This document shows, piece by piece, positions 1,799-19,496 of a DNA stretch of 38,587 bases. Position numbers and translations under genes: made by a program. Below the pieces are notes generated by a model. That model had not been told where the DNA came from. It saw only the letters and a list, made by a program, of their open reading frames with translations, and ran no database searches. Source of the DNA: a virus (lineage: Duplodnaviria; Heunggongvirae; Uroviricota; Caudoviricetes); IMG/VR virus record IMGVR_UViG_3300029650_000167, one strand, 5' to 3'. The first letter of the stretch is position 1. Each line of letters opens with the position of its first letter.

Positions 1799-2000
1799 GT
1801 TTTCCACCGTTTATATGCATAACAACCTCCTGAACAGTAAAGCATTACGCATAATAAACCATTTATGGTTTTTTGTTACTTTAACATCGTCAATTCCCTG
1901 TTTTTCATGCCGAGAATAAAGCTCACCTTTTACATGACTCTGAAGAAACAAACAGTGAAGAGCAGGTTGAATACCGCACCATTTAATGGCGCGGTAGCAG

Positions 2001-4483: not shown

Positions 4484-4587
4484 GTTAAATCTCCAGATAG
4501 TCGCAGCACCCGTTGCGCCGCATATCTGGTTATTCTATTACCTGAAAAACCACATATGGATAGAAAGACTGTGAATACGAATAGATA

Positions 4588-4602
4588 TTACCTTTCAGGT
4601 AA
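4588..4602. promoter_or_regulatory. operator-like palindrome TTACC-TTTCA-GGTAA
   Basis: Perfect 15-bp inverted repeat in the divergent region between tailspike and the LexA-box gene; on minus strand flanked by TTGCAA and TATCTA at -35/-10 spacing. Confidence 0.6.
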
Positions 4603-4641
4603 TTTGCAAAACGTGCTGGATAGCAAACAAATTATTTGCTA

Positions 4642-4657
4642 CTGTATAAATATACAG
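4642..4657 (+). promoter_or_regulatory. LexA box (SOS box) CTGT-N8-ACAG
   Basis: TACTGTATAAATATACAGTT at 4640-4659 matches the enterobacterial LexA consensus TACTGTATATATATACAGTA at 18 of 20 positions; overlaps an extended -10-like TGtATAAAT; 22 nt upstream of SD GGAG. Confidence 0.75.
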
Positions 4658-4678
4658 TTATTGCATGGAGAAGATAAG

Positions 4679-4936
4679 ATGCAGCAGTATCACTATCCAC
4701 TGGAAGACGGATTTACCGAAAGGATTCACACGCCGGGAGGCGTCAGGTCACTGGTGGAGGGATCGCATTTGATGAAATTACTCCGGGATCTCGATAAGGA
4801 TGGATTTAATGTCGATGGCCCACTTGCCGAACTGACTGCACTGATTAACTACGTCACCAGCTCACAGATGTCTATGCAGGATCTGCAAACACATCTCGAC
4901 TATTGTGCCGAACAATTACGAAAGCAAACCAGATAA
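4679..4936 (+). CDS. small LexA-controlled protein, antirepressor-like domain (paralog of Bro-N protein C-terminus)
   Basis: 85 aa; SD GGAG 8 nt upstream; residues HTPGGVRSLVEGSHLMKLL...DGFNVDGPLAELT...QTH align with the C-terminus of ORF 5252-5962. Confidence 0.5.
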   Translation: MQQYHYPLEDGFTERIHTPGGVRSLVEGSHLMKLLRDLDKDGFNVDGPLAELTALINYVTSSQMSMQDLQTHLDYCAEQLRKQTR

Positions 4937-4967
4937 GGTTTGCAATTACCAAGTGGAGTGCTTATAT

Positions 4968-4982
4968 TTACCTTTGCGGTAA
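4968..4982. promoter_or_regulatory. operator-like palindrome TTACC-TTTGC-GGTAA
   Basis: Perfect match to the dispersed 15-bp motif, between the small LexA-box gene and the Bro-N gene. Confidence 0.5.
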
Positions 4983-5062
4983 ATTTACATCGCACTCCTC
5001 TTGTGCCATAGTAATCAGGCACTGGCAAAATCCAGTGCCGGGATTGGCGTCCCGAGTTACTA

Positions 5063-5085
5063 AGTGGCGCATACCACGCCAGACG
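5063..5085 (+). terminator. rho-independent terminator-like hairpin
   Basis: Stem ACCACG/CGTGGT with 5-nt loop followed by seven T. Confidence 0.45.
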
Positions 5086-5251
5086 TGGTTTTTTTATGCG
5101 TTAAGCACAGCTATATCCGAATTATGGTGGGCTGGGCAGGGGTCCGAAAGGACGCCGGTACCACTTAGGCCGGTACGCCAACCTTGTCCAGTTCACCACC
5201 AGTAATTGGCGTTGCGGTGGTGATTAAAATCACTAAGTGGAGATAACCACC

Positions 5252-5962
5252 ATGGCTAATGCTCAAACTGCCATCTTCAAATTTGAATCTGTTAACCCTA
5301 TCCGTTCCATCATTATCGATGGCCAACCATGGTTTGTAGCCCAAGACGTTTGTAGTGCGCTGCGCATCCAAAACGTCACCCAAGCACTTGAAAAACTGGA
5401 TGATGATGAAAGGTCTATGTTCAACATAGGGCATGAACATCGTGCAATTTTTGACAGCCGAGTAAAAGAGATCAACATCATCTCCGAGTCAGGCCTCTAC
5501 ACACTGATCCTCCGCTGCCGCGACGCAGTGACACCAGGCACTATCCCCTACCGCTTTCGTAAATGGGTTACAGGTGAGGTTCTTCCTCAGATCCGCCGCA
5601 CCGGAAGTTACATTAAAAACTCGCTCCCGCAGGAAGAACGCATAAAGATGGTTGCCGACCAGGTAGCCAACGCCACGGCGTCAGCAGTAATGCAGGCGAT
5701 GAAGATAGAGAACAAAACCTACAGTGCCCCACTGAAGCCCGGCTACCGTAGCCTGATTCATTCGCCGTCTGGTGTTCTCGGCCTGACGGAGAACTCACTG
5801 CTGATGAATCTGCTGAACCAGTTACAGGAAGACGGGCACGACGTATCGGGCGCGGCGGCGGAGCTGACCACCATGTTCTGCTACATCGTCGGTGTGAGCA
5901 AATGCCTGCGTGATATCCAGACCCACGCGGAGTACATCAACGACAAGGCTGGGTTCTTCTGA
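5252..5962 (+). CDS. Bro-N domain protein, putative antirepressor
   Basis: 236 aa from ATG 5252 (SD GGAG 9 nt upstream; track shows GTG at 5237); N-terminal FKFE...IDGQPWFVAQDVCSAL...ESGLYTLILRC resembles Bro-N/KilA-N; C-terminal about 70 aa paralogous to ORF 4679-4936. Confidence 0.6.
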   Translation: MANAQTAIFKFESVNPIRSIIIDGQPWFVAQDVCSALRIQNVTQALEKLDDDERSMFNIGHEHRAIFDSRVKEINIISESGLYTLILRCRDAVTPGTIPYRFRKWVTGEVLPQIRRTGSYIKNSLPQEERIKMVADQVANATASAVMQAMKIENKTYSAPLKPGYRSLIHSPSGVLGLTENSLLMNLLNQLQEDGHDVSGAAAELTTMFCYIVGVSKCLRDIQTHAEYINDKAGFF

Positions 5963-5999
5963 CGGGCGGCGGCACAGGGATGTGCCTTTAAAATAATCA

Positions 6000-6029
6000 T
6001 TGGCGATGTGATGTAGATTCGCGTAATAT
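6000..6029 (+). promoter_or_regulatory. sigma70-like promoter (TTGGCG - 18 bp - TAATAT)
   Basis: -35 and -10 hexamers at canonical spacing immediately followed by the operator palindrome at 6029. Confidence 0.4.
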
Positions 6030-6043
6030 TACCTTAAAGGTAA
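6029..6043. promoter_or_regulatory. operator-like palindrome TTACC-TTAAA-GGTAA
   Basis: Perfect motif directly after the -10 and directly before SD AGGAGG of ORF 6056. Confidence 0.55.
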
Positions 6044-6055
6044 AGGAGGCGCGAT

Positions 6056-6223
6056 ATGACAGCGTTGAAAAATCGTACTCAGCACAATGAACAAGCCAAG
6101 CAATGCTGGGATGTCATTGGAAAAGTTATGCTTGGCCGCGCAAGCAAAGAGCGCGACAAGGATATGGTTTACCAGACAGGAACATCTTTCAGCGACTTCA
6201 AGGCGGCATTTCGCTCCAAATAG
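6056..6223 (+). CDS. small hypothetical protein (55 aa)
   Basis: Strong SD AGGAGG 6 nt before ATG; below the ORF-track size cutoff; basic, no TM segment. Confidence 0.4.
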   Translation: MTALKNRTQHNEQAKQCWDVIGKVMLGRASKERDKDMVYQTGTSFSDFKAAFRSK

Positions 6224-6243
6224 AAGCACATCAGGAGTTTTCC

Positions 6244-6684
6244 TTGAAGTTTAACATTAGAATATCTAATAGTTTTCTACATGGGGAAAGCAACACCCCT
6301 TTCGCTGTAGACGGACCTTTCCTTACTGATGATGAAATAAAAATCATACAAAGTTTTTTAGAGGATGTTGCCAATGGAAGGGCGCTTGTTGGAAAAAACA
6401 AGCCCTCATGGGTTGATGATAACCATGATAAAATTCCCGGCTCAGACAATTATGAGCAAGAGAATTATTGGCATTATCATTGTGGGCCAACATGGTATCC
6501 AAACACATTTAAGAATTATACCATTAACTTAAATTTCAACCCTAGCGGAAGGCATTCTAATGAATGCATTCATTATGCAAAAAATGATAATGAAATTGTC
6601 ATTGTTGGATTTTCAAGAGAACACATACCTTTCCTTTCATCAGATGGAAACAACAATCCGCTTTTTAATGATGAAGAAGAATAG
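6244..6684 (+). CDS. hypothetical protein, AT-rich moron (start uncertain, possibly TTG)
   Basis: Open frame from 6103 to 6684; no internal ATG after the upstream small ORF ends, TTG at 6244 is preceded by GGAG; about 33 percent GC versus about 52 percent for the phage; followed by a strong terminator. Confidence 0.4.
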   Translation: MKFNIRISNSFLHGESNTPFAVDGPFLTDDEIKIIQSFLEDVANGRALVGKNKPSWVDDNHDKIPGSDNYEQENYWHYHCGPTWYPNTFKNYTINLNFNPSGRHSNECIHYAKNDNEIVIVGFSREHIPFLSSDGNNNPLFNDEEE

Positions 6685-6704
6685 CCCGCGCTGCGGGCTT
6701 TTTT
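6683..6704 (+). terminator. rho-independent terminator
   Basis: AGCCCGC-GCT-GCGGGCT hairpin followed by TTTTTT. Confidence 0.7.
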
Positions 6705-6776
6705 GTGGACGAAACAAAAGTCAGTGCTACACTCATTGACGCCACATTGAGGTGGCTTATAGATGGAAATTTCACA

Positions 6777-6938
6777 ATGAAAAAAGCATTTGCTGCACTG
6801 TTCGTTTTGTTGTCTCTGGTAGCTTCAACTCAGGCCTTTGCCGGTCGTTGTCAGCACGACAGCGACACTGCCGCTGACGGCTCCCGCTGCGGTGGGCGTT
6901 CTGCGGATTCCCGCCCGGGCGGCGGTGGCATTCGTTAA
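6777..6938 (+). CDS. small secreted peptide (signal peptide plus about 31-aa Gly/Arg/Asp-rich mature region with two Cys)
   Basis: MKKAFAALFVLLSLVASTQAFA looks like a Sec signal peptide ending at an AxA site; internal ATG of the track ORF 6705-6938. Confidence 0.4.
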   Translation: MKKAFAALFVLLSLVASTQAFAGRCQHDSDTAADGSRCGGRSADSRPGGGGIR

Positions 6939-6960
6939 AAACAAGGCCGCGAAAGCGGCC
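6934..6960 (-). terminator. rho-independent terminator for the minus-strand membrane-protein gene
   Basis: GGCCGC-GAAA-GCGGCC hairpin; on the minus strand it is followed by TTGTTTTT. Confidence 0.5.
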
Positions 6961-6961
6961 T

Positions 6962-6973
6962 GTGACATGTCAC
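6962..6973. other. perfect 12-bp palindrome GTGACATGTCAC (copy 1 of 3)
   Basis: Identical 12-mer also at 24567 and 26832; overlaps the TGA stop of the minus-strand ORF 6970-7266. Confidence 0.5.
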
Positions 6974-7266
6974 GTCCCTTTTCTGAATGATAGCCATTCG
7001 AAAAATGATGACATTCCACCGCAGACAATAGCAAAGATGATCCCACCAAAGAAGAGAAGGCCAGCCTGCCACCACTCCCACCGCCATACATCCACAGCGC
7101 CAACCATACCAACAATCGCTCCAACAAATGGAATATAGCTCACGATGAAAGCAATGGGGGCTGCAATTATCCAGTGCAATCCCCACCATGATTCAAGCCC
7201 AGCCATAATTGCTGCCAACTGAAAAAGACCAACGACGATATAAACAATGAATCCTATAGCTTGCAT
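6970..7266 (-). CDS. small integral membrane protein
   Basis: 98 aa with three hydrophobic segments and several Trp; function unknown. Confidence 0.45.
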   Translation of the reverse strand: MQAIGFIVYIVVGLFQLAAIMAGLESWWGLHWIIAAPIAFIVSYIPFVGAIVGMVGAVDVWRWEWWQAGLLFFGGIIFAIVCGGMSSFFEWLSFRKGT

Positions 7267-7278
7267 GTAGTCACCTAT

Positions 7279-7458
7279 TTACCCAGTAAAAATAAGAGGC
7301 CTCCCCTCAATAAGGCTTGCAACAAGAACTACTCCCTGCACAACAAAGATGAACCAGCAAATAGCTTGAGTCTGAGGGTTAAGAAAATATTTGTAGCGGT
7401 CAATAAATAACAATCCACCAGAAATTATCACACTCAAAATAATTAAAAACACAACACT
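7279..7458 (-). CDS. possible small membrane protein (GTG/TTG start)
   Basis: 59-codon hydrophobic ORF in the same frame as, and immediately after, the stop of the 824-aa gene; no clear RBS. Confidence 0.2.
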   Translation of the reverse strand, partial: SVVFLIILSVIISGGLLFIDRYKYFLNPQTQAICWFIFVVQGVVLVASLIEGRPLIFTG

Positions 7459-7461
7459 TCC

Positions 7462-9936
7462 TTATTGCGGAGTGACATCCTGAGGTCGCCACCAGTATGT
7501 CTGGTTAAACTCTTTCTTCGAACGTTGCTCCATTTTACGCAAATAGCCTGGTGAAAAATACTCCTGCATCTGATTAAAGATCATGTGATCGAGAGCCGCC
7601 TTCAAGTACCAGAGATTCGCACCTGGCATCAAACCTTTCCCCAGCTTCACCAGATCACCACCAGTCTGCTCACTCTTCCCTTCCACAGCATTTAGCGGTA
7701 TGCCCTGAGCTATCTTCACTACGTCATCAACCAGACCAGCTACCGGGCCAAGCATCGACGCCAGCGCGCCGCTCCCGTACCTAGTGTGATCTGACAATAA
7801 AAAGTCACCGTAAAGGCCAAGACCACCACCTTTCAGTAGAGCACCAAGCCAAAATTTAGCAGCATCTTCTCCTGTCATCTCTCGAGGATTACGACCAGAC
7901 GCAAGGTCGTTAAGTTGTTGCGACAAAGCGCCAAGAATGGTCGTACTGGCAATAAACGTCGCAATATATGCCGCACGCCCACCAGCAGACGGCATACCCA
8001 TAGCGCGTGACCAGTGACGCATAACAACCGAGATAGGGAACGATTTAAACAGGAAAACACTTCTCGTTAATTCACCTTTCCATGTTCCACGCTGAATACC
8101 AGAACCGGTTATCAGTTGCTCACGTGCTCCCGGTGTAATAACAGCCATATCAACTTCTTCAGTTACGGCACCGAGCAGTTTACGCATTGCCTCAAATTTC
8201 ACGCGTTCAGGCTCACCAAGATGTTTAACTGCTGAATCAGGGATACGCATAATGCTTTCCGGTGTCAGCATCGTATTATTACCGTTCCCCCAGTCCTCCT
8301 GTTGCGCCAACTTCCATACGCTCCAGTCTGTGTCAGTAATCCCTTTGCTTTTCAGGATACGAAAATCAGAGTCATCGAGGCGACGAAGGTCTGGTGTCCG
8401 TGACACTACTTCTCCCAGGCTTCCCATCATGGTTACGCCATAGGCGCGCTTGTGCGCATCTGACCATGCTGTAAGCCCACTGGCACGCATTACCGCCGTT
8501 GCAGCCCAACGAGACACAGACGGCCCCATATTATCCATCGCCCAGCGGTTAACGCTGCCAAGTAGAGATTCCATCGCCAGACCAGCGCGGCGCGCCCGCG
8601 CAAGTTCTGTACGGTTCGTTGGGTCCATAGCTTCAAGCTGGTTGCGGAATAACTGGTTCATTGGAAGGTTGGTAACCTTCGCAGACAGATACATGGTTCC
8701 AAGATCAGAGAACGATGACAGCAACGCGGATCCGAGTCTGCTGGCAACCAGCCAGTTGCGGATATTGTCAGACCATCGCGCGATGTGCGGATTCGCTACA
8801 GGCTGTGTCTTTCCGGAAATAAAGTTGTACAGATTCTCTGTGTTGTTCGCCAGCCGCTCGACTTTACCGGTTTTACTCGGGTTAGCTGTTGCCGTTTCTG
8901 CCTTCACCTGATCAAGAAGAGAGCGGAAAACATGATCGGGGTTTGGACCATATGTTTCCACCAGTGCAATATCTTTACTGATACCTTCCAGGTGACCGAC
9001 CATGATTTCCCATAGAGAGCGATCGCCATAAAGTTGCTGATATTGCAGATAGGAATCTGCATCTTTGAAATGTATCTGTCGTGATGCATTACCACGGTTA
9101 GCACGTGCGCCGGAAATTCGCATTCCGGTATCAGTAAGCTTATTCAGCCCACCAGTAGCGATCGTGTTATAAGCCTCTCCAAGAAATGCAGACAACTCGG
9201 CATCGTTCATCAGTTGTCCATCGGCTCGGGTATAATATTTGCGATCCAGCTTACCTATAACATCGCTAACCCATTTATCTTTTGATACCGCCCCAACCTT
9301 TTCCATAGAATGATGTTGAGGGATCCCCCAGTTTTCGAGATAGCCAATGTCCCCACCAGCATCATTAAACCGGCGGCGCAGTAGCTCTGTCACTTCTCTC
9401 CACGCCTTAGCACCTTTTCTTGCTTTAGCATTGCCAGTATTTTGCCCCCGCATTTCATATACCAGGTCACGTACGCCAGCTTCATCTTCAAACAGACCAA
9501 AAAAGCGAGGATCAACTGCTTCGAATGCCTCCTGCAATTGACTCAATGCATAATCACGGGTGGCTTTTGTTCTGGATTCAACAGAGAGGAAATTCGATTT
9601 ACCGTCTGCATTAAAAGCAATAGTACGGTTAAGAGCGCCAAGTTTCCCATCAGCCCCTTGATAGCTATTGATAAATTTATCCAATCTCTGACGTGCGGCT
9701 ATAGTGAGGGCCACACGACGTTTCTTTAATGCCGCTTCTCGCTGTAATTCTTCAGATGCCAATTGTGCTGCACGATACAGCCGCTCTGATTCGGAAAGTT
9801 GTCGCCACGACATCGGGTCATCACGAGCAATGGAGCGCATATTTCGATAAATGCGGTCTTCAATGTTCTGTATTTCTCGCGCCGTTAACGTGCGCTGCGC
9901 CGCCTGCTGGACCGCTTGTATACATTCCTGTCTCAT
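7462..9936 (-). CDS. internal virion / ejection protein (large)
   Basis: 824 aa, last large gene of the core series before the moron island; assignment by size and synteny with T7 gp16-like proteins, no motif recognised. Confidence 0.5.
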   Translation of the reverse strand: MRQECIQAVQQAAQRTLTAREIQNIEDRIYRNMRSIARDDPMSWRQLSESERLYRAAQLASEELQREAALKKRRVALTIAARQRLDKFINSYQGADGKLGALNRTIAFNADGKSNFLSVESRTKATRDYALSQLQEAFEAVDPRFFGLFEDEAGVRDLVYEMRGQNTGNAKARKGAKAWREVTELLRRRFNDAGGDIGYLENWGIPQHHSMEKVGAVSKDKWVSDVIGKLDRKYYTRADGQLMNDAELSAFLGEAYNTIATGGLNKLTDTGMRISGARANRGNASRQIHFKDADSYLQYQQLYGDRSLWEIMVGHLEGISKDIALVETYGPNPDHVFRSLLDQVKAETATANPSKTGKVERLANNTENLYNFISGKTQPVANPHIARWSDNIRNWLVASRLGSALLSSFSDLGTMYLSAKVTNLPMNQLFRNQLEAMDPTNRTELARARRAGLAMESLLGSVNRWAMDNMGPSVSRWAATAVMRASGLTAWSDAHKRAYGVTMMGSLGEVVSRTPDLRRLDDSDFRILKSKGITDTDWSVWKLAQQEDWGNGNNTMLTPESIMRIPDSAVKHLGEPERVKFEAMRKLLGAVTEEVDMAVITPGAREQLITGSGIQRGTWKGELTRSVFLFKSFPISVVMRHWSRAMGMPSAGGRAAYIATFIASTTILGALSQQLNDLASGRNPREMTGEDAAKFWLGALLKGGGLGLYGDFLLSDHTRYGSGALASMLGPVAGLVDDVVKIAQGIPLNAVEGKSEQTGGDLVKLGKGLMPGANLWYLKAALDHMIFNQMQEYFSPGYLRKMEQRSKKEFNQTYWWRPQDVTPQ

Positions 9937-9941
9937 TTAAT

Positions 9942-11744
9942 TTAACCTCTCAAGAAACACGCCACAGCAACATCAAACAGGCTGGAATCCTGTATTGCCT
10001 GCTCACTTTCCCTGTTCGCTTCATCCAGTACTTCACGCGCACTGCGCGATTGTGGATTACCATCATCATCCAGCACGGTGATTATCATGTCAGGTGATTC
10101 AAGCAGCGAGTCTTCAGCTATACGCAGATCAATATCTCCTGCCGGATCTGCCATCATTTTTTGTTCTGTCTGTTGCAATATCTTACCGGGCTCAAAAGGA
10201 GCTACTTCTTCTGGCGTCCTGACCTCTGCTGTTTTATAGAATGAAACAGCCTGAGCATTAAGTTCACTTTCTGCCTGCTGTCGTCGTGCCAGTTCTGCTC
10301 GAGCTTCAAAAAACTGACCTCCAGGCTCGTGCGGCGCCAACGCGTTACGAGAAAATTCCAGGCGTTCTTGTGCCTGCCGGATTCGTTGGTCAATATCGCG
10401 AAGTCTGGCCTGTTTATCTGATCGAGCACGAGATAAAGCCTTACCGCTACCGGTTGGCTCTTCTGCAAGAATTTGTGCGCGCTGTTCAGTGAGATTTTCA
10501 ATAATTCGTTGGCTATTAGCGATTTCAGACTGGTAAACCTTTCTATCGCCACGCGACAAAAGCTGCGCGGCCTGTTCTTCAAGCAACCGATTTTCTATAG
10601 CGCGCGCCGTTACTCCATCATCTACAGATGACAGAGCCTCATTAACTGCCTGAGACAGCAGACTCTTGCGCCCAGGAATTTCACTGAAAGATGCAGACTC
10701 AACAATGCTGGCAACGTCTACAGGTCTCCCCTGGCTAACATCAGACATGGCTTTTCGCAGAGCCTGAATGTGCGAATTACGCGAAAGCACGTTGATCGGA
10801 ACGCCGGGAGCAATATCAATTTCAGCATGATGAGCGGCATTCGCCGCCAGTGCAGCATCAATATCAACTGGTGAAAAATTTGGTGCGCTTGTAGACTCGC
10901 CGCGAGAGTTAATAAATCTGCCGACACCACCAAACGCCACCCCAAGAACAGCATCAATAGCAATTGCCTGTCGATCCAACACATCATACTGGTTAGCCAT
11001 TTCGCTATAGCCACCATCACGAAGCGTTTTTGCAGTAAGCCCACGCTGTGCCATACCGAACGCAATATTTGTACCTGCGGCATAGGCAATATCTGGCGTT
11101 GCACGTACTGCTGTTGCTGCGGCGCGTCGCACTGAACTTTCACCCGTCCGCGCAAGCTGAGCCGCCACACCTTCCGCCAGCGCACCACCAGCACGTAACC
11201 CGAGGCTCATAGGGATCAGTGTTCCGGCACCAGCAGTAATACCCTGCACTAATCCCGCTTCCTGCGCCGTCCTGAAATCAACACCCTGTGCTGTCAACCG
11301 TTCAAACTCAGAAAAACCCTGTAGAGAAGTTACCGCCGCAGCACCTCCGACCGGACCACCGAGCGTTGTACCGACAACAGCCTGCCCGCCCATATCGAAC
11401 AACCCATAAAGGACCTGCCCGGCGGTTCCGGTTGTCGCGGCATCAGGCGTCAGCCGCTTAACCTGCTGCTCTGCTAGTTTTCTCTGCTCAGCAATGTATG
11501 AAACTGAAGTGTCATTGAGCGAGGTGTTTTCGTTAACAAGCTGAGCAATCGGGGATACGATTTTATCCATCCCTGCCCATAGCAACTGATCTGGCTTTGC
11601 CACCAGCCCGGAGTACAAACCAGACAATGCCGCTCCTACAGCATTGTCGAAAAAACCAACATCGCTGTTAAAGCCAACTGGATTTGATGCTGCTTCGTCA
11701 AGCTGCTGATTCTGGTTTACTGGATTAAGGCCAAAGTAACTCAT
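9942..11744 (-). CDS. internal virion / ejection protein
   Basis: 600 aa, Gly/Ala-rich N-terminal half and coiled-coil C-terminal half; synteny-based. Confidence 0.45.
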   Translation of the reverse strand: MSYFGLNPVNQNQQLDEAASNPVGFNSDVGFFDNAVGAALSGLYSGLVAKPDQLLWAGMDKIVSPIAQLVNENTSLNDTSVSYIAEQRKLAEQQVKRLTPDAATTGTAGQVLYGLFDMGGQAVVGTTLGGPVGGAAAVTSLQGFSEFERLTAQGVDFRTAQEAGLVQGITAGAGTLIPMSLGLRAGGALAEGVAAQLARTGESSVRRAAATAVRATPDIAYAAGTNIAFGMAQRGLTAKTLRDGGYSEMANQYDVLDRQAIAIDAVLGVAFGGVGRFINSRGESTSAPNFSPVDIDAALAANAAHHAEIDIAPGVPINVLSRNSHIQALRKAMSDVSQGRPVDVASIVESASFSEIPGRKSLLSQAVNEALSSVDDGVTARAIENRLLEEQAAQLLSRGDRKVYQSEIANSQRIIENLTEQRAQILAEEPTGSGKALSRARSDKQARLRDIDQRIRQAQERLEFSRNALAPHEPGGQFFEARAELARRQQAESELNAQAVSFYKTAEVRTPEEVAPFEPGKILQQTEQKMMADPAGDIDLRIAEDSLLESPDMIITVLDDDGNPQSRSAREVLDEANRESEQAIQDSSLFDVAVACFLRG

Positions 11745-14254
11745 TGCGGAATATCTCCGGAGAATCTCTGACGCTTCTGTGTCAGATCAAGAACAACGGG
11801 AGAACCATCATCTTTTAGCAGATAACCAGTACCAAGTTTCACCAGGTACTGACTATCGCCGTAACTTTGCAAACCATACTGACCAGGCGGTGTTTTTATC
11901 CCTGTGCCAACAACTTGTTCATTCCAAGCCTGATTAACCTGCTTATCGAATTGCTCTGCAGACATTCCCCACGGCAAAAGAACATTCCCCATTCCGTTAT
12001 AGTCATGCACGCCACCTGTAGCTACGTTAACAGCCTGTTTCCAGATATCATTGTCAATTTCGCCTGATACCACGCCTTTTTTCGCCATCACACCAGCGTA
12101 ATAGTCCTTTGCGATCTCGTATGCCATTGATGCCCCCTGAGCATCACCAGCAAATGCATTCTTCACCATGTCAGAAAACTCAAGGCGAAGATCAGCATCT
12201 TTAGGCATCGGAATACCTTTCGCGTCATCAGTACCTTTACGAGCCGCCGCGCCAGCAAGAATTGTCTGCGCAGCGGTTTCTGGAGACACGGAAACATCCG
12301 GATTAAACCAGTTTTTTTCTGCCAAAATACCACCTGGCTTATCCATCAGTATCCCGGCAACGGCAGCAGATGGAGCGTTGGCACTGATCTGCTGTAGTGC
12401 TGACATATACACCTGCCCACCACCAGTGCTCTGCCTGATGGTATCGAGATATGCTGCCTGTTGGGAAACGGGCGCATCACGAAAGAAAACACCGATCTGA
12501 TTGGCCTCGTCTTTGGAAAAGAACGTCAGTGGAGTGCCATATGACTTAGCAAGGTCACTGACCTGAGCAGCACGCAAGGCAACGCTCTGTCCAAAGTTAT
12601 CCTTATTGCTCATGTCGATAGGCTTTGCCTGTCCGGCGGCAAGAGAGAACTGTACAGGATCAGCCTGTCGCTGCTTTATCACCTGACTTGCAGCCGACAC
12701 AACGTTGTCATAAAGAGCGGCTCGTGCCGCATAACCCTCCCCTGTCTCACCAGTATCCGGGCGTAATTGCTCAACATATGCTGTAATGCTGCTTGTCGGC
12801 ATGTTGCGGAAAGAGCCTATATACTGTCCGGCGATTTGCGTATTTCTGAACTCGGTATATCGCAGGTTTCCTTCTCTTACTCCATAAGCTGCAATAAAAT
12901 CAGCCTCACCAGGTGGGTTAGGAAATTCAACGCCACGCATATACGCAGCTGTCGCATCGCGAACCTGGCTGTCAATCATCGTTTTATATTCAGCCTGCTG
13001 CTGCCGACGCAGTTGATCCGCCTGTCGCATAAAACTTGCCTGCGCCTCAGGAGATGCCGCATCGAATGCTGCATTACCGGTATAGCGTTTGGTGTTGGTT
13101 GGAATTGTTGATAAACCAAGTGCTGCACTGACACCAGCAGTTAACTGCTGATCACTGTATGGCTGGCTACCGTTCTCATGATGGATAATGGCTGCACAAA
13201 GCGCCTTCAGGGTATCAGGATTAGATGCATCGAGAGGCTCATCAGCAGAAACGCCAAGTTGTTCGCACACTGCTTTGATATACGACATAGTGTCATTTTT
13301 ATCAGCAGGCGGTGCCCAGCGATTAATTATCTCGCTGACGGTATCAATACCCTGCCTCTGATACGACATCAGGTTCCGCCCTAATGCACGAATCCCGTGT
13401 TCAGGTGTTTCGAATTTAGCAAATCGACCATCATCACCGGTCTGGCCTACCCACGGATTAGTTTTGCTGTATTCGAGATTTCCTGGGTTATTGTTGCGTA
13501 TGCCACGGGCACGCTCGGAAGAGTCACTATCTGCTACAGCACGGCGAGCTCCAGCAGCAGTATCACTTAACTCGCCATTACTTTGGATGAATGCGGTCGC
13601 ATTGTTTGCCGACCACTGGGACAATGCGGCATCAGCAACCTTCTCTTTAAACTCGATTTTCTTGGCCTGGATTTGCTCGTCGCTCCAGCCATGCGCAATG
13701 CCGTAATCCTCAATTTGCTGGAAAGTTTGCTTATTAGCCAATACGTATGCGGCGTTGTCGCCATACAATGCTGCGGCATTTTTACCATTGTTCAGCAGCG
13801 TCGCCTGAAACTGGCCTTCTTCGTAGGCATTTATTTGCCCTATCTCGTGCCGCCCGGCCTGCGTAGTGAACTGAATGCGCTGCTGCTGCGCCTGCTGCAT
13901 GAAAGCATTACGAGCCTGTTCATCCGGCAGCGACATAGCCAATTGTTCGACCTGAGCATCAAACTGCTGCGTATACTCATGGCCTTTTCCAATAGCATTT
14001 TTCCCTTTCAGGTTAAGCAATCCTGTTTCAGGATTATTCAGCAAATCACTGCTTATCTGACTGAGGTTAAGAGATGCCTCCTGAGCCAAGGCAATATTGA
14101 CACGCTGTTTTGCCTGCCCAAAAACATCAATTGCCTCTTCCCCTGCCAGAACAAAAGCATCACCAATACCTGGCTGAGAAAACGTCTGCAAGCCTGCTGA
14201 CTGAACTCCACGGCTCTCAACCTGACGTCCGGATACTGTTGGTACGACTGGCAT
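11741..14254 (-). CDS. internal virion protein (T7 gp15-like by position)
   Basis: About 837 aa from ATG at 14254, which overlaps the upstream stop as TAATG with SD GGAGG; the track ORF starts further upstream at 14329. Confidence 0.45.
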   Translation of the reverse strand: MPVVPTVSGRQVESRGVQSAGLQTFSQPGIGDAFVLAGEEAIDVFGQAKQRVNIALAQEASLNLSQISSDLLNNPETGLLNLKGKNAIGKGHEYTQQFDAQVEQLAMSLPDEQARNAFMQQAQQQRIQFTTQAGRHEIGQINAYEEGQFQATLLNNGKNAAALYGDNAAYVLANKQTFQQIEDYGIAHGWSDEQIQAKKIEFKEKVADAALSQWSANNATAFIQSNGELSDTAAGARRAVADSDSSERARGIRNNNPGNLEYSKTNPWVGQTGDDGRFAKFETPEHGIRALGRNLMSYQRQGIDTVSEIINRWAPPADKNDTMSYIKAVCEQLGVSADEPLDASNPDTLKALCAAIIHHENGSQPYSDQQLTAGVSAALGLSTIPTNTKRYTGNAAFDAASPEAQASFMRQADQLRRQQQAEYKTMIDSQVRDATAAYMRGVEFPNPPGEADFIAAYGVREGNLRYTEFRNTQIAGQYIGSFRNMPTSSITAYVEQLRPDTGETGEGYAARAALYDNVVSAASQVIKQRQADPVQFSLAAGQAKPIDMSNKDNFGQSVALRAAQVSDLAKSYGTPLTFFSKDEANQIGVFFRDAPVSQQAAYLDTIRQSTGGGQVYMSALQQISANAPSAAVAGILMDKPGGILAEKNWFNPDVSVSPETAAQTILAGAAARKGTDDAKGIPMPKDADLRLEFSDMVKNAFAGDAQGASMAYEIAKDYYAGVMAKKGVVSGEIDNDIWKQAVNVATGGVHDYNGMGNVLLPWGMSAEQFDKQVNQAWNEQVVGTGIKTPPGQYGLQSYGDSQYLVKLGTGYLLKDDGSPVVLDLTQKRQRFSGDIPQ

Positions 14255-14799
14255 TATAATCCTCCGGGTAATCTGGTTCCTGCTGCTGCCCCGATTGGCG
14301 CAGGAGTGCTTTGAGTAAACGGACTCCACGTCCCACCAAACATCTGGTACGCACCGTATGCCTTCAGAGGCGCAGTGAGCAATGTTGTTGCTGCTCCCAC
14401 ATTCCCCTGTTTACGGGCTGAACTGGCTTCTGCTTTATAGTTAGCAGCCTGCATCTGATAACCGTAAGCCTCGCGTTGCGCATTATTCACCGTCGTCAGA
14501 GAATCAAGAGCGCCAAACTGAGCTGTGTCGCCAAATATATCCAGCGCGTTACCGGTAGATAAATCGGCGCCGGTCGCCCCCATTGTCGCCGCCTGTGTAC
14601 CAAGCCGCTGTCGGGTCTCTCTGCGCCGTTGCTCAGCTTCAGCGTTACCTCTGTTTATTGCATCATTTGCCTGAGCTGTGGCTATATCTGCGTTCGCTTC
14701 TGCAACCTTCGAGGCATACTTTCCCTGTTGGTACTGGGTGTATGCCTGAATGCCACTCATGGCGAGCATTGCGCCACCAGCAATAACCGGATCGCACAT
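14254..14799 (-). CDS. internal virion protein (T7 gp14-like by position)
   Basis: 181 aa, Ala/Gln-rich; TAATG coupling to both neighbours. Confidence 0.4.
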   Translation of the reverse strand: MCDPVIAGGAMLAMSGIQAYTQYQQGKYASKVAEANADIATAQANDAINRGNAEAEQRRRETRQRLGTQAATMGATGADLSTGNALDIFGDTAQFGALDSLTTVNNAQREAYGYQMQAANYKAEASSARKQGNVGAATTLLTAPLKAYGAYQMFGGTWSPFTQSTPAPIGAAAGTRLPGGL

Positions 14800-15263
14800 T
14801 ATTTTCTCTCCATGTGAAATCTGTGGAAATTAAGACCAAGAGCACCATAAGGCGCGGCTTCTTCAAGCCTGAATCCAAGCCAGTGCAGCCATGCTTTGGC
14901 AACATGGTTTCGCTCGTCGACATAGTTTTCCAGGCGCGGATAAACTGCCAGCATCTGCTGCAATACAGGGCGGCAGTGGCGAAGAAATGTCTTCTGATAT
15001 TTTTCGATACGGCTGGTTCCGACCAGCCAGGGCGTACCATTGCCACCGATCATTGACGCCGGAGATACGCCAAACATGGTTACCAGTTCTCCGTTCGCAA
15101 ATCCTGACCAGGCCATAGTCGCAGTACGCAGACCAACACGCAGCGCATCTTCGGTAGTCATCAGTGATACCGCATACAGTTCGTCAATATCAGCCTGACG
15201 AACATCCGGCAAAATCATCTGAAGATGCTCTTCGGTTGCGGGAATAATTTGAACATCGATCAT
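14799..15263 (-). CDS. virion protein (T7 gp13-like by position)
   Basis: 154 aa; start overlaps the upstream stop (TGATG). Confidence 0.4.
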   Translation of the reverse strand: MIDVQIIPATEEHLQMILPDVRQADIDELYAVSLMTTEDALRVGLRTATMAWSGFANGELVTMFGVSPASMIGGNGTPWLVGTSRIEKYQKTFLRHCRPVLQQMLAVYPRLENYVDERNHVAKAWLHWLGFRLEEAAPYGALGLNFHRFHMERK

Positions 15264-17734
15264 CAGAATCCCCCAACAGTAAGGCGAGGAATAACGGCAA
15301 GAACAGACAGCGGCAACGGATCAAGCTGACGGATTTTTACACGTCCGTTTTTGCCCCAGTTACTGTCCAGTTTCACTTCTACTTTTCCGGTAGCATCATC
15401 AACAGGATCATCGTAGAACTCGAATTCACGCTGTGGATATTCGTACCATTTACCGCCGGGCGTAGTCGCCCAGATGCCGCGACTGGCATTCACAACCAGA
15501 GTAACGGAGGGGATCACCTGTTTTTTGTCCAGCAGCGTTTCCTGTCCGTTAATGTTGATATCCAGTGTTTCGAATTCAGCAGTTATTGGCAGGCCGATGT
15601 GCACTACAGCCCCCGGAGATTCCAGCGTGACGGCACCTCTGGAAACCACTTTCTGTGGTTCCACGTTCGCATCAGAGAGAATGTTTACGGTCTGGCCTTC
15701 AAGATGAGACAGGCCTCCAAATGTCCGGCGCGCCATCTGCCAGTTCGTGGTGGCCACATTCCTGAGGGATGGCGGGACGTTCCTGTTAGCACGAACCACT
15801 ACAGCGGTATTGCTGGTTACAGAAATAATGTCGCAACGTAATTCTTTTGACACTTCATCGCCAGTATCAGGATCAGTTCCGGTATAAGGGAACTGTAGTT
15901 GCGCGCCGACATCACTACTGGTGAAGTACGCACCACCAGAAACACTGATTGTATATTCCGCACGGTAATCCCATTCACCAGAACCACCAGTGATGGTCAT
16001 CGTTCTGTCAGACGTATTTCTTCCATCATAGCTAAGGCCAGAATCAACAAAGAAAGCATCTTCATCGCTGGTAAATAAACGGCTGGACAGTCTCTCGATG
16101 TATCTCACTGTTTGCCCGTTAACGGTTCTGTTAACGACGAAATACACCGCATCTTCATTGCCTTCGCTGATACTGCATGTGCTTTCATATTTTCCGGTAC
16201 TGGATTGTGGTGCCCATGCAAAAACCTGCTGATCACGCAAATAGGTCATCACCAGTAATTTACCGTCATCACGAATGCAGAAGGCACTGGAGTAAGGGAC
16301 AATCGAGAAGCACCAGTCAACAATGCTGTGCTTCTGAAAAAGATGATTGGCAAGGATAGTAAGGTCGTTCCCCTGATAGCCGTCAACATCGAATGAATAG
16401 GCCAGATCACGGACAACACTGCCTTTCTCCTGGACGAACAGAGCAATATTCGCCACGGCAATTGGTGGGACGTTGCTTGAGCCATTTGATCCCTGAGAGC
16501 TGAATGCAAATGATGATGGGGTTAACACTTTGTTCTGGTCGCCGGTGATGACGTACTCACCTCCGGAAGTCAGCGCCACCAGCGAACCAACATCAATCAG
16601 GTGGCGGATCTCATTAACCTGACGCCCGGCATAGGTGTAGATAATTCTATCGTCATCCTGCGTAGGATTGCTTTTGCCAAAATCCTTATAATCCCCAGTA
16701 CGGCTGGCCCAGATAGTCTGAGGGAACGCAGTCGATGCGGCGAAGTAAAGACGCTGTTGATAATAAACAACAGTGCCAGGATAACCATTAACACTGTTCC
16801 AGGCATATTTAGCCCATTTATAGCTGGCATTATCCTCGCCAACGACCTGCGAAGGGATATAGGAAATCACCTCAGCAGTTGCAGTAGTGCCATTTACAGC
16901 AGTTATACGGGCAATGCCAAAACCACTGTGCAGATACTCCCACTCAATGCCAGTATCATCATCACCGGAGCCGCCCCAGCCATCCCATGATGTGCCTTCT
17001 GTATGCGAAGGGCGCAAAGTGCCTGTTTTGCCTGCTGTAACGGCGCGATAGTAGTTACTGTCTGCACGGCGAATATCGCCAATCGACGTACTCTTACTGG
17101 TTTCCCATACCGGTACTGAATCCACTGCTGGCTGTTCCAGATAGAACAATTTGCCTACCTGCTCCGCGCCAAAAATAGAGGCGCTTGCCGTTAACGTAAT
17201 TGTCCCGATGCTGGCGCTGGCATAAACCGTCACTGACTCGTCAATATTGATATCTTCAAATGGCCCGTTCTTCGTTACCACATCAACCAGTTGCCAGTTG
17301 TCATGCGCATAGCGGCGCAACTCTTTCGGCGGGTATGCCGGATGAACCAGCGTAAGCACGTCTGCGCTTTGCGTGAATTTAATTCTGAACAGATCGGCTT
17401 CAGTATATGGCGTGGCAATTTCATAAATAACATTGCTGCTGTTCAGCACCAACGCACCATCTTTGATAACGCGCATGTACTGGTGTCCGAACTCCAGAGC
17501 ATAAGTCTGAACCGTCGAGAACTGGAACGGGATCAGGCGGCATTTCCGATTTGGGTATTTGGCGGCACCGACAAAACGCGTACCAGGTCGATTCTCAACG
17601 CCGCCATACTGCCGCACGATAAAGTTATCGCACTTGCGCAATGCCACCTGGTACTTCGCCATGTCGATACGACCGTACAACGACGGTCCAATCTCACCAC
17701 CGGCAAAGCTGGGCTGGATCCAACTGATAGCCAT
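15263..17734 (-). CDS. tail tube/hub protein (T7 gp12-like by size and position)
   Basis: 823 aa; translationally coupled to both neighbours. Confidence 0.5.
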   Translation of the reverse strand: MAISWIQPSFAGGEIGPSLYGRIDMAKYQVALRKCDNFIVRQYGGVENRPGTRFVGAAKYPNRKCRLIPFQFSTVQTYALEFGHQYMRVIKDGALVLNSSNVIYEIATPYTEADLFRIKFTQSADVLTLVHPAYPPKELRRYAHDNWQLVDVVTKNGPFEDINIDESVTVYASASIGTITLTASASIFGAEQVGKLFYLEQPAVDSVPVWETSKSTSIGDIRRADSNYYRAVTAGKTGTLRPSHTEGTSWDGWGGSGDDDTGIEWEYLHSGFGIARITAVNGTTATAEVISYIPSQVVGEDNASYKWAKYAWNSVNGYPGTVVYYQQRLYFAASTAFPQTIWASRTGDYKDFGKSNPTQDDDRIIYTYAGRQVNEIRHLIDVGSLVALTSGGEYVITGDQNKVLTPSSFAFSSQGSNGSSNVPPIAVANIALFVQEKGSVVRDLAYSFDVDGYQGNDLTILANHLFQKHSIVDWCFSIVPYSSAFCIRDDGKLLVMTYLRDQQVFAWAPQSSTGKYESTCSISEGNEDAVYFVVNRTVNGQTVRYIERLSSRLFTSDEDAFFVDSGLSYDGRNTSDRTMTITGGSGEWDYRAEYTISVSGGAYFTSSDVGAQLQFPYTGTDPDTGDEVSKELRCDIISVTSNTAVVVRANRNVPPSLRNVATTNWQMARRTFGGLSHLEGQTVNILSDANVEPQKVVSRGAVTLESPGAVVHIGLPITAEFETLDININGQETLLDKKQVIPSVTLVVNASRGIWATTPGGKWYEYPQREFEFYDDPVDDATGKVEVKLDSNWGKNGRVKIRQLDPLPLSVLAVIPRLTVGGF

Positions 17735-18339
17735 CAGGACAACCTCGCAATGGTAAACTCGTCAACCGGTGGCTGTGGTTCCTGTGATTCATTCTGGCTA
17801 TGCGAGCCAGCACTAAGAATCACGCGATTGTACATATTGAGGGCAAACGTACCGAGGTCTGCATTCCCAGTCAGCGCCATGTTAATGGCTGCCGCAAGAC
17901 GCCAGGCCAACGCCTCCATAAAAATGGCATCAAACATGTTCACATCTGTAACGCGAGAGACATACTTGAGCCATGCCTGAGGCTGGTCTGTGTAGATCAA
18001 CTTTCCTGTTCCGTTGGTGTCTGCACCAACTTCGTACTGAACGCGCATTGCTGCTGTTGGATTGCGTACACCAGGAAGCATAATTTCAGTAATGCGCAGA
18101 CAATCTGACGGGTACTGGTACGCGTATTCCCAGTCAGGCGGTGGATTGCTCGTATCTGCAAGCGCCACGCGTTTGGTAGCAAAGTTCCAGTCAAAATCAG
18201 AAAGAACAGCATCACGGCAGGCCTCAAAGTGCAGCGAACATTCCCCCGCTTCCTTGCTGGCTTCCGTCAGGCTGTTAATGCTGCGGCTGTTGCCAATATT
18301 GGACAACGCACGATTGCAGATCTCTACTACAGAGGCCAT
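17734..18339 (-). CDS. tail adaptor / tail tubular protein A-like
   Basis: 201 aa immediately upstream of the 823-aa tail protein; synteny-based. Confidence 0.4.
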   Translation of the reverse strand: MASVVEICNRALSNIGNSRSINSLTEASKEAGECSLHFEACRDAVLSDFDWNFATKRVALADTSNPPPDWEYAYQYPSDCLRITEIMLPGVRNPTAAMRVQYEVGADTNGTGKLIYTDQPQAWLKYVSRVTDVNMFDAIFMEALAWRLAAAINMALTGNADLGTFALNMYNRVILSAGSHSQNESQEPQPPVDEFTIARLS

Positions 18340-18662
18340 TACTCCCCCCCATTGCCGTACAGAGTTTCAGCCGCTGATTTTTCTACATCCCCGGAAACAG
18401 GAGCGATCGCCATATCAGTGATCTGCAGATCGGCGCTGCGATTAACACCATCGTCAGTTTCTCTGGCAGACAGGCCTCGAATAACAGCCTTTGCAGTTAT
18501 CATCACTTCTGTTCCGACGCCCTGAGGTTGCGCCTTCAGCTTATTCAATGTGTCGTTATTAAGAGTGATGCACAGCCCCCACGGGTATTCATCGCGAGTT
18601 CTGGTTTCTCCGCTCTCATCCTGGTAGCTGTCAGTGCCGGTTTTAAGGTTTACGAGTTCCAT
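18339..18662 (-). CDS. hypothetical virion-associated protein
   Basis: About 107 aa from ATG 18662 with SD GGAG; follows an intergenic hairpin. Confidence 0.4.
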   Translation of the reverse strand: MELVNLKTGTDSYQDESGETRTRDEYPWGLCITLNNDTLNKLKAQPQGVGTEVMITAKAVIRGLSARETDDGVNRSADLQITDMAIAPVSGDVEKSAAETLYGNGGE

Positions 18663-18678
18663 ATACACTCCTGCAATA

Positions 18679-18696
18679 AAGGGGCCGAAGCCCCTT
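18679..18696 (-). terminator. GC-rich hairpin with UUCG loop, terminator/attenuator-like
   Basis: Minus-strand transcript reads AAGGGGC-UUCG-GCCCCUU followed by UAUUG; lies between two structural genes. Confidence 0.4.
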
Positions 18697-18712
18697 GTCT
18701 GATTCGCGAGGC

Positions 18713-19048
18713 TTACACGCCCAGTTCTTTACGCTTATCTGCGATCTTCTCGCGGAGCGTTTCGGCTTTAGCGTTATGGTGTGGCTTCTCGTTAAAGAGC
18801 AATTCGTACTCTTCACGGAGCTTATCCAGTTCACCATCATCTGACACATCGTTGATGATTTTGGTGCTGGTTGCTGCCATTGACACCTTTCCTGCAACTT
18901 TTGCTTTTGCCTGTCTGGCTGCATCGTTAACAGGTTCCAGTGCGCTACCAGGCTCACCTTCGTATTCGATTTCTGCCCCCTCCGGCCACAGAGTGTTATG
19001 GATATGAGAGAGGCGCAGAACGCGGTATCTTGGTTTCTCACCTGACAT
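18713..19048 (-). CDS. small virion protein (possible capsid accessory)
   Basis: About 111 aa from ATG 19048 with SD AGGTGA; charged, coiled-coil-like C-terminus. Confidence 0.4.
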   Translation of the reverse strand: MSGEKPRYRVLRLSHIHNTLWPEGAEIEYEGEPGSALEPVNDAARQAKAKVAGKVSMAATSTKIINDVSDDGELDKLREEYELLFNEKPHHNAKAETLREKIADKRKELGV

Positions 19049-19058
19049 CGATATCACC

Positions 19059-19496
19059 TTAACCAGTTACTTTTGAGCGGATCGGATACGGCGTATTGGC
19101 ATCAACATCAAGACTGATACCAGCAGTGAATTCGCCAGCCGTTAGTGGGCCAGTTGCGACGGAGTAGTTAACACGCAGATATCGCTGAACACCGGCAGGC
19201 ACCTTTGCAGAAACAACTCGTTTACCTGCTGTCAGGGTAGCCTTTGCCAGTGCGCCACTATCATAAATAGTGGACCATGAGCTGTTATTCTCACTCGTCT
19301 GCAACTGGATGTTTACAGTTGCCTCACCACTTGCCGTGGCGGCTTCGTTAACCAGCACCCAAAACTCAAGCGGATAACCCACGCCGATATCGCGACGGTT
19401 TCCATCAATTGGACCGAGATCGATTACGTCAGTAGAAGCCGCGGTATTCGTAACCGCCTGAGCTTCGGAGAACATCAACAGTTTGTCGGTGATCAT
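19059..19496 (-). CDS. capsid decoration/auxiliary protein (putative)
   Basis: 145 aa, Thr/Ser/Ala-rich beta-like sequence directly after the major capsid gene; SD GGAG. Confidence 0.4.
   Translation of the reverse strand: MITDKLLMFSEAQAVTNTAASTDVIDLGPIDGNRRDIGVGYPLEFWVLVNEAATASGEATVNIQLQTSENNSSWSTIYDSGALAKATLTAGKRVVSAKVPAGVQRYLRVNYSVATGPLTAGEFTAGISLDVDANTPYPIRSKVTG

Follow-up and report, generated by a model that had tools for sequence, protein, structure and literature searches.

We read positions 19,496 to 7,462 on the minus strand of IMG/VR record IMGVR_UViG_3300029650_000167, a 38,587-nucleotide (nt) stretch of caudoviral DNA referred to here as the window, as belonging to a temperate podovirus of the phiV10 type, integrated in or infecting Escherichia coli, and as the distal half of its late operon, encoding a T7-type tail and five capsid-packaged proteins, with a probability of about 0.85. 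Five of the seven tail and internal proteins of this region, those of 201, 823, 154, 181 and 824 amino acids (aa), are by profile comparison homologues of T7 gp11, gp12, gp13, gp14 and gp16. A sequence-only reading of this DNA had proposed a T7-like tail and core series from synteny alone; searches with hidden Markov models (HMMs) and structures related these five proteins to their T7 counterparts and two of them to solved T7-like tails, so that synteny is replaced by homology as the basis for the adaptor, nozzle, gp13-like, gp14-like and gp16-like assignments, while the gp15 and split-gp16 assignments of that reading were not supported.

Across its 12,035 bases, the nucleotide identity of the region is 98.6% to phage vB_EcoP_ZX5 and 98.3% to phiV10, and it is 98.2% and 97.4% to phiv142-3 and HEMP4, respectively. 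These four phages of the genus Uetakevirus have the same gene content and order as the region and are separated from it by a few percent of nucleotide differences. Each of its genes has a counterpart in the same order in phiV10 and in Salmonella phage epsilon15, both Uetakevirus, and on the basis of identity and collinearity with the type phages the window element belongs to this genus. Given the 98.3–98.6% identity to annotated phages, together with a PHROG family match at E ≤ 1e-58 for every protein of the region, the genes are real and not chance open reading frames (ORFs). None of the seven tail and internal proteins had a meaningful NCBIfam match. Elsewhere in the window are an integrase (37337–38587), a helix-turn-helix (HTH) repressor-like gene (32904–33488), a major capsid protein of the epsilon15 type (Pfam GP7) and a portal of the T7 type (Pfam Head-tail_con). 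Matches to the region were present in 566 of 5,426 complete E. coli genomes (~ 10%), 300 of which hold at least 80% of it, and it is therefore part of a common prophage.

For comparison with T7, each gene slot was aligned within two sets of phages and all slots were compared by hhalign, with a repeat using -M first in window or T7 residue numbering. The epsilon15-supergroup set comprised 12 phages (the window phage, epsilon15, a Klebsiella prophage-type phage, Pseudomonas MPK9, UFJF_PfDIW6, BPP-1, Burkholderia KL4, Xanthomonas CP2, Vibrio MZH0603, Pelagibacter Skadi-3, Nostoc Nsp-JY18 and Caulobacter BL94) and the Autographiviridae set eight (T7, four T7 relatives, phiKMV, SP6 and P-SSP7). Locus searches with the window nozzle or T7 gp12 gave close relatives only, and the diverse genomes were chosen individually. 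In 45 completed comparisons of the window-carrying slot profiles and a giant-protein profile with the T7 slots, only five pairs scored, all of them expected same-slot pairs (Table 1), and the -M first repeat confirmed the same five; the 40 completed cross-slot controls gave probabilities of at most 1.1% and E-values of at least 0.05. Identity of the region's proteins to their T7 counterparts is 13–23%. T7 gp11 to gp16, whose sizes (196, 794, 138, 196, 747 and 1318 aa) bear out those that the sequence-only reading relied on, resemble the window proteins in order and size, and the two phages share the portal family and, by prediction for the window phage, a muralytic activity among the ejected proteins. 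T7 differs in that its gp15 has no detectable homologue in the window, which in turn has an extra 600-aa gene, a temperate lifestyle and an epsilon15-type capsid.

The tail assignments are connected to solved structures. The 201-aa protein matched the 'Connector Protein' of Cobetia phage Carin-1 (PDB 8ck1_E) at E 4e-26, and a profile search with the adaptor alignment reached this chain at 7.4e-50 and the adaptor of Legionella phage LME-1 (9efk_T) at 3.9e-14. Against the T7 gp11 family, hhalign gave probabilities of 80–87% (E 4e-6 to 1.3e-5, 166–178 columns), with residues 3–186 aligned to gp11 residues 12–180, and the protein matched phrog_394, 'tail protein'. The 823-aa protein matched the Carin-1 'Tail Nozzle' (8ck1_A) at E 3e-217 over residues 2–822 and the LME-1 chain 9efk_M at 3.4e-15. 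Its hhalign probability against the gp12 family was 97% (E 4.5e-11 to 8e-11, 527 columns), with residues 21–599 aligned to gp12 residues 17–619, and the nozzle group HMM matched T7 gp12 at 1.1e-5. The LME-1 tail, with a 12-mer adaptor and a 6-mer nozzle, closely resembles the T7 tail, and the portal, adaptor, nozzle and fiber of Carin-1, another T7-like virus, are its closest structural matches (PMC12407071). A 12-mer adaptor joined to a 6-mer nozzle thus has experimental models in these two tails (8ck1 and 9efk); they come from phages of other hosts and genera, and the entries hold tail proteins only and are uninformative on ejection proteins. By analogy, the 201-aa protein is expected to form a dodecamer below the portal, and the 823-aa protein a hexamer with a sixfold gated tube.

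The two small internal proteins follow the same pattern. The gp13-slot group HMM matched T7 gp13 at 5.4e-9 and the P-SSP7 gp13-slot protein at 7.7e-23, hhalign of the 154-aa protein against gp13 gave probabilities of 97.5–98% (E 1.5e-12 to 5e-12), and the protein matched phrog_308, 'internal virion protein'. For the 181-aa protein, Pfam T7_gp14 (PF24072) was matched over residues 1–163 with 32.5 bits (E 1e-7) at a gathering cut-off of 27, hhalign against gp14 gave probabilities of 80–84% (E 8e-6), and the PGAP name of the gene is 'virion core protein, T7 gp14 family'. By analogy with T7, this protein is predicted to be an ejected component of an outer-membrane pore. In both phage groups, the N-terminus of most gp14-slot proteins has a conserved signature, Met-Cys and then a hydrophobic helix rich in Ala and Gly, which reads MCDPVIAGGAML.. 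in the 181-aa protein and MCWAAAIPIAIS.. in T7 gp14.

The 824-aa protein aligned with the C-terminal region of T7 gp16 with hhalign probabilities of 89–93% (E 4.6e-7 to 2.5e-6). The HMM of its family matched T7 gp16 at 7.4e-4 and, reciprocally, the T7-group gp16 HMM matched its 1129-aa counterpart in the Klebsiella relative at 1.5e-8. An 'FKSF' motif is common to the 824-aa protein and T7 gp16, and the protein matched phrog_684, 'virion structural protein'. It is predicted, again from the T7 precedent, to form the inner-membrane end of the ejection channel. The suggestion that the 600- and 824-aa genes together represent a split gp16 is not supported for its first half, as only the 824-aa protein matches gp16 and the 600-aa protein matches neither gp16 nor gp15. 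In BPP-1, PfDIW6, CP2, MZH0603 and BL94, one protein of 1900–2480 aa takes the place of the 600- and 824-aa pair. Similarity of these giants to the window pair was weak, collinear and non-significant (E 0.007 for the 600-aa family against the N-terminus and 0.36 for the 824-aa family against the C-terminus), and a 110-sequence HMM of the 600-aa family matched none of them; an origin of the pair by fission of such giants is possible but is not supported by these comparisons. The corresponding gene of Nostoc phage Nsp-JY18 spans ~ 12 kb.

In the gp15 position, the 837-aa protein carries a predicted Enc34-type peptidoglycan hydrolase domain with conserved catalytic residues. Residues 249–398 matched the N-terminus of Gp29 (PDB 9vvp_L) at 5.1e-38 and the Enc34 endolysin (7q47_A) at 2.7e-17, and W313, Y325 and E360 align with W79, Y95 and the catalytic E131 of Enc34. 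Enc34 defines the PHA02564 lysozyme-fold family, and its muralytic activity has been shown and Trp79, Tyr95 and the catalytic Glu131 identified (PMC8943055). Since its neighbor Gp28 matches T7 gp15 at 3e-211, Gp29 is the gp16 orthologue of a T7-like phage, and the same wall-cutting module is therefore found at the N-terminus of gp16 elsewhere and in the middle of the protein in the gp15 slot here. The Enc34 domain belongs to a lysis endolysin with a C-terminal membrane anchor, whereas the domain of the 837-aa protein lies between two helical virion-protein regions. T7 differs as well, having a muralytic SLT domain at the N-terminus of gp16 (residues 15–127), and a Pfam search found no SLT match in any window protein. 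Among the relatives, the gp15 slot holds SLT-like 'ESG' motifs or no muralytic domain, and in KL4 a transglycosylase is encoded by the next gene. The enzyme domain changes place among the ejection proteins, which had been noted before for K1E and phiKMV (PMC8954989). Many E. coli variants of the 837-aa protein, of 935 aa, are 98–99% identical to it over only 70% of its length.

The 600-aa protein, encoded between the muralytic and the gp16-like proteins, had no Pfam, NCBIfam or PDB sequence match, and its middle is a coiled coil. A single-protein homologue search gave only matches of at least 99% identity, and a search of representatives was used for depth. Among 1.84 billion representatives, 1,355 relatives were found at E ≤ 1e-3, with residues 1–390 as the core, and a C-terminal motif of ~ 60 residues ending in ..AAVxCFLR is conserved in the family, with Cys596 nearly invariant. 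Sixteen of the best 150 representatives are 980–1740 aa long and keep both ends, and between these ends lie the domains ddrB-ParB (five), ART-PolyVal (four), Zeta_toxin (two) and DUF3990 (two). Long homologues with an 824-like or gp16-like C-terminus were also looked for among them, and none matched. The AF2 model of the 600-aa protein is all helical (pLDDT 77.9), and its matches in BFVD are named DdrB-like, large polyvalent protein and putative internal virion protein. Iyer, Burroughs, Anand, de Souza and Aravind (2017; PMC5512222) argue that polyvalent proteins are packaged in the virion and enter the host along with the injected DNA. The 600-aa protein shares its N-terminal ~ 390 residues and C-terminal motif with proteins of 1000–1740 aa that carry the domains listed above. 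A polyvalent protein is, however, defined by two or more disparate domains, and the 600-aa protein, which shares only the frame and is without a recognizable effector domain, falls outside this definition. We view it as an additional, probably co-ejected protein, an effector-less form of a cargo frame. Two database entries call it an 'M3 family metallopeptidase', for which no support was found.

Several results weigh against the reading of the region as a T7-type tail and ejection set. At E ≤ 0.01, the 201-aa protein did not match Pfam Tube (PF17212), which T7 gp11 itself matches at 9e-69, the 823-aa protein did not match Phage_nozzle (PF25675), to which T7 gp12 scores 1274 bits, and the 154-aa protein did not match Phage_T7_Gp13 (PF11090). 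No T7 chain was reached when PDB sequences were searched with profiles built from the adaptor, gp14-like and 824-aa alignments, and three of the five links, those to gp11, gp14 and gp16, therefore rest on profile–profile scores of 80–93%, obtained from small alignments and without secondary-structure scoring. These proteins are remote homologues and not members of the curated families, and the 154-aa protein in particular is, judged by its profile scores, a gp13 homologue outside the curated family boundary. Also unfavorable is that even a profile of 56 sequences revealed no relation in sequence between gp15 or gp16 and the 837-aa protein outside its enzyme domain, that the 600-aa family showed none with a 110-sequence alignment (hhalign probability ≤ 0.4% to gp15 for both), and that a Foldseek search of PDB with the 600-aa model returned nothing below E 0.4. 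Finally, the protein locations and order of action given below are borrowed from other phages.

These negative results bear most directly on the gp15 assignment of the sequence-only reading, which had no sequence signal behind it, and they raise the alternative that the likeness to T7 in the gp15/gp16 part is positional only, with the 837- and 600-aa proteins being unrelated replacements that serve a periplasmic-tunnel function (non-orthologous displacement) and not diverged forms of gp15 or gp16. Slot contents in the relatives are indeed variable, with either one giant or two proteins and with different muralytic families in different slots, and Klebsiella ST512-KPC3phi13.3, the closest non-Uetakevirus relative, has no 600-like gene. 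The structural model of the 837-aa protein leans the other way. Its AF2 model has a pLDDT of ~ 80 for residues 50–220 and 400–820 (the lysozyme domain is poor because half of the input alignment was without it), and in a Foldseek search the T7 gp15 chains 6yt5_A and 7k5c_A ranked 2 and 5 among 350,542 PDB chains and had the highest 'prob' among the first 50 matches listed, although these matches are non-significant (E 0.11 and 0.20, TM 0.14–0.18) and give a hint of fold likeness in a predicted model. Size, helicity and position also agree with gp15, and gp15 is known to diverge too fast for sequence methods; Hardies et al. could not link even P-SSP7 gp15 to T7 gp15 (PMC4819975). On balance, we regard displacement as a serious possibility that stops short of being the favored explanation.

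A further alternative places the 837-, 600- and 824-aa proteins in an external tail hub and tube, following an 'adsorption apparatus' model of epsilon15 in which gp15 and gp17 form a central tube and gp16 a plug. The genetic model of Guichard 2013, as described in PMC12391199, puts epsilon15 gp15, gp16 and gp17 in the external tail hub and not in the core, which speaks against packaging of these proteins in the capsid, and according to the same source (2025) gp4, gp20, gp15 and gp17/16 were assigned by Guichard et al. 2013 to a tail packaging/injection device. No structure assigns the epsilon15 core densities to specific proteins, nor could a 2026 preprint on a related Xanthomonas phage. On the other side, the solved Carin-1 and LME-1 tails can be explained by the adaptor and nozzle alone, the 824-aa protein is by profile a homologue of gp16, a core and ejection protein, the muralytic domain of the 837-aa protein also occurs at the N-terminus of the gp16 orthologue Gp29, and the 600-aa family is fused to injected-effector domains. 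An internal core is visible in epsilon15, and it exits the capsid to build a tube that spans the periplasm, according to work cited in PMC8954989 and PMC12391199. We therefore consider an external hub improbable and retain the reading of these proteins as capsid-packaged ejection proteins.

Under this ejection reading, coupled transcription of the late operon would keep the tail and core proteins in fixed ratios. The 12-mer adaptor and 6-mer nozzle would assemble on the T7-type portal, with tailspikes encoded at 2294–4483, while the gp14-like, 837-, 600- and 824-aa proteins would be built into a procapsid core, aided by the gp13-like protein. Upon adsorption, the nozzle would open and the core proteins would be ejected, the gp14-like protein first, forming a pore in the outer membrane; the 837-aa protein would then cut peptidoglycan and probably line a periplasmic conduit, the 600-aa helical protein would presumably be co-ejected, and the 824-aa protein would complete the channel at the inner membrane. 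For this scheme, work on T7 and epsilon15 supplies, by analogy, the stoichiometries, the placement in the capsid core, the ejection order, the membrane locations and the role of the 600-aa protein.

On the minus strand, the genes form a single long transcription unit with translational coupling, which ends at a terminator-like hairpin near 7293–7309. Ten consecutive genes run from 19496 to 7462, three for capsid-accessory and seven for tail and internal proteins (201, 823, 154, 181, 837, 600 and 824 aa). All seven ORFs named by the sequence-only reading exist on the minus strand where it placed them, and the same range also holds three genes missing from its list, those of 145, 111 and 107 aa; the 145-aa cement gene is a capsid accessory gene and not a tail gene. 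One-base TAATG or TGATG overlaps join the 107- to the 201-aa gene, 201 to 823, 823 to 154, 154 to 181 and 181 to 837, an ATGA overlap joins 837 to 600, and a 5-nt gap separates 600 from 824, which bears out the earlier claim that nearly every junction is translationally coupled. An ATG at 14254, overlapping the stop of the 181-aa gene, is taken as the start for the length of 837 aa; the mechanical ORF is 862 aa long and starts at a GTG upstream, within the preceding gene. A scan of the operon found no convincing internal promoter.

Table 1 Features of the late-operon region, with hhalign scores of the five proteins that pair with T7 slots
Feature	Coordinates	Strand	Basis	T7 slot, hhalign probability, E-value
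145-aa Bbp16-family capsid cement protein (phiV10p11, epsilon15 gp8)	19059..19496	-	Pfam Bbp16 PF21190 E 5.5e-49; PGAP name 'Bbp16 family capsid cement protein'	
111-aa protein (phiV10p12, epsilon15 gp9)	18713..19048	-	ORF check, phiV10 annotation	
Intergenic gap of 50 nt with GC hairpin GGGGCTTCGGCCCC then TTTATT	18663..18712	-	sequence read	
107-aa gp10-like capsid staple or decoration protein	18339..18662	-	Pfam Gp10-like PF21628 E 1.2e-51; PGAP 'capsid staple protein'	
201-aa tail adaptor, counterpart of T7 gp11 (tail tubular protein A)	17734..18339	-	homology	gp11, 87%, 4e-6
823-aa tail nozzle, counterpart of T7 gp12 (tail tubular protein B)	15263..17734	-	homology	gp12, 97%, 8e-11
154-aa homologue of T7 gp13 (internal virion protein A, assembly factor)	14799..15263	-	homology	gp13, 98%, 1.5e-12
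181-aa homologue of T7 gp14 (internal virion protein B)	14254..14799	-	Pfam and hhalign	gp14, 84%, 8e-6
837-aa internal virion protein: helical N-terminal region, central muralytic domain, helical C-terminal region	11741..14254	-	phrog_992, AF2	
Predicted muralytic domain, residues 249-398 of the 837-aa protein, Enc34/PHA02564 lysozyme-fold family	13061..13510	-	PDB sequence matches	
600-aa all-helical protein (epsilon15 gp16 family)	9942..11744	-	representative search, AF2	
824-aa homologue of T7 gp16 (internal virion protein D) C-terminal region	7462..9936	-	hhalign and HMM	gp16, 93%, 5e-7
gp16-aligning part of the 824-aa protein, residues 170-644 against gp16 621-1122	8005..9429	-	hhalign -M first	
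57-aa ORF, two hydrophobic segments (phiV10p21, 'putative integral membrane protein')	7279..7452	-	last operon gene	
Terminator-like hairpin and T run, end of late operon	7293..7309	-	terminator scan	

The only sizeable intergenic gap of the operon lies between the 111-aa gene and the staple gene. Its hairpin is possibly a leaky terminator, to judge from its sequence, between the capsid genes and the staple and tail genes. Stem-loops are annotated as terminators at the equivalent place in epsilon15, and the terminator consensus scan did not call this one. T7 likewise has a terminator, T-phi, between its capsid gene and gene 11. At the far end of the operon, the 57-aa ORF follows the 824-aa gene and sits where epsilon15 has gp18, possibly as a further member of the ejection set. 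The terminator-like hairpin there has an annotated counterpart at the equivalent place in phiV10. Beyond the operon, the left arm of the window (1–7461) is 99.7% identical to phage HEMP4. It includes a putative tailspike gene of 729 aa (2294–4483, minus strand), which lies in a low-GC stretch (37–41%) and whose product had no Pfam match. phiV10 has a spike of 875 aa and an oac O-acetyltransferase gene; the window differs in its spike region and is without oac, which suggests that the O-antigen specificity of the window phage differs from that of phiV10.

A P4-type integrase and a lambda-like immunity region beside the T7-like tail and core series had led the sequence-only reading to call the genome strongly mosaic. 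An integrase and an HTH repressor-like gene do coexist with T7-type portal, tail and core genes, but their combination is the standard layout of Uetakevirus, as in phiV10 and epsilon15. A recent chimera, in which a lambdoid temperate backbone captured a T7-family structural module, would account for this coexistence and for the local mosaic joints that are evident. It is nonetheless a most implausible origin, because identities to T7 of only 13–23% signify ancient divergence and because the layout is that of a whole recognized genus and a wide supergroup, the gene order being common to epsilon15, BPP-1 and Pseudomonas, Xanthomonas, Vibrio, Pelagibacter, Nostoc and Caulobacter phages. The capsid, moreover, is of the epsilon15/BPP-1 type (GP7, Bbp16 and gp10 staple) and not of the T7 type.

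At a finer scale, mosaicism is apparent from sequence identities within the ejection-protein genes, which appear to be a recombination hot spot. Gene order from epsilon15 gp8 to gp18 corresponds one to one, and identities are 85% for the adaptor, 88% for the nozzle, 63% for gp13, 77% for gp14 and 59% for gp15, whereas the 600- and 824-aa proteins reach no more than 33% and 28% with epsilon15 gp16 and gp17. For the 824-aa protein, the counterparts in Pseudomonas MPK9 (44%) and Burkholderia KL4 (31%) are closer than that of epsilon15, indicating exchange within the module; the nozzle, 88% identical to that of epsilon15, is 43–55% identical to MPK9. Phage TL-2011b shares only 14208–19496 of the window, spanning the capsid genes through gp14.

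Earlier work has described this type of phage together with its T7-like tail and its set of ejection proteins, and the discovery value of the region is small in this respect. Using HMM–HMM comparison on epsilon15, Hardies et al. 2016 identified gp11 and gp12 as tubular tail proteins A and B, gp13 and gp14 as internal virion proteins (IVPs) A and B, and gp17 as IVP-D, with gp15 and gp16 as IVP-C candidates by position only and no gp15 homologue detected (PMC4819975); their tail-protein and IVP-A, -B and -D assignments carry over directly to the window. In a 2022 review, epsilon15 is listed as having homologues of gp14, gp15 and gp16 and is noted for a T7-like core stack (PMC8954989), and in RefSeq the phiV10 and epsilon15 proteins are already labeled 'tail protein' and 'internal virion protein', with notes from HHpred. 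The T7-like assignments were thus already known and are reproduced independently here; what is added is the family identity of the muralytic domain and the link of the 600-aa family to polyvalent proteins.

In bacterial genomes, by comparison, PGAP names three of the ten genes of the region (T7 gp14 family, Bbp16 cement and gp10 staple; for example, NZ_CP121153.1 1372031–1384065), and the adaptor, nozzle, gp13-like and three large internal proteins are 'hypothetical protein' in most E. coli genomes (NCBI/PGAP: seven of ten genes). The adaptor, nozzle, gp13-like, muralytic and gp16-like assignments are transferable to hundreds of these genomes. More tentatively, and with the odds somewhat against it, the slot between the muralytic and gp16-like proteins may be a cargo slot in the epsilon15 supergroup, where the 600-aa protein would be a bare delivery frame, consisting of the N-terminal ~ 390 residues and the C-terminal ..CFLR motif, into which podoviral relatives insert anti-host effectors, namely a ParB-like nuclease, an ADP-ribosyltransferase or a zeta toxin, for co-injection with the DNA. 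If so, the frame alone would bear the signals for core packaging and passage through the tail, and it would be a candidate vehicle for delivery of engineered proteins from a common E. coli prophage.

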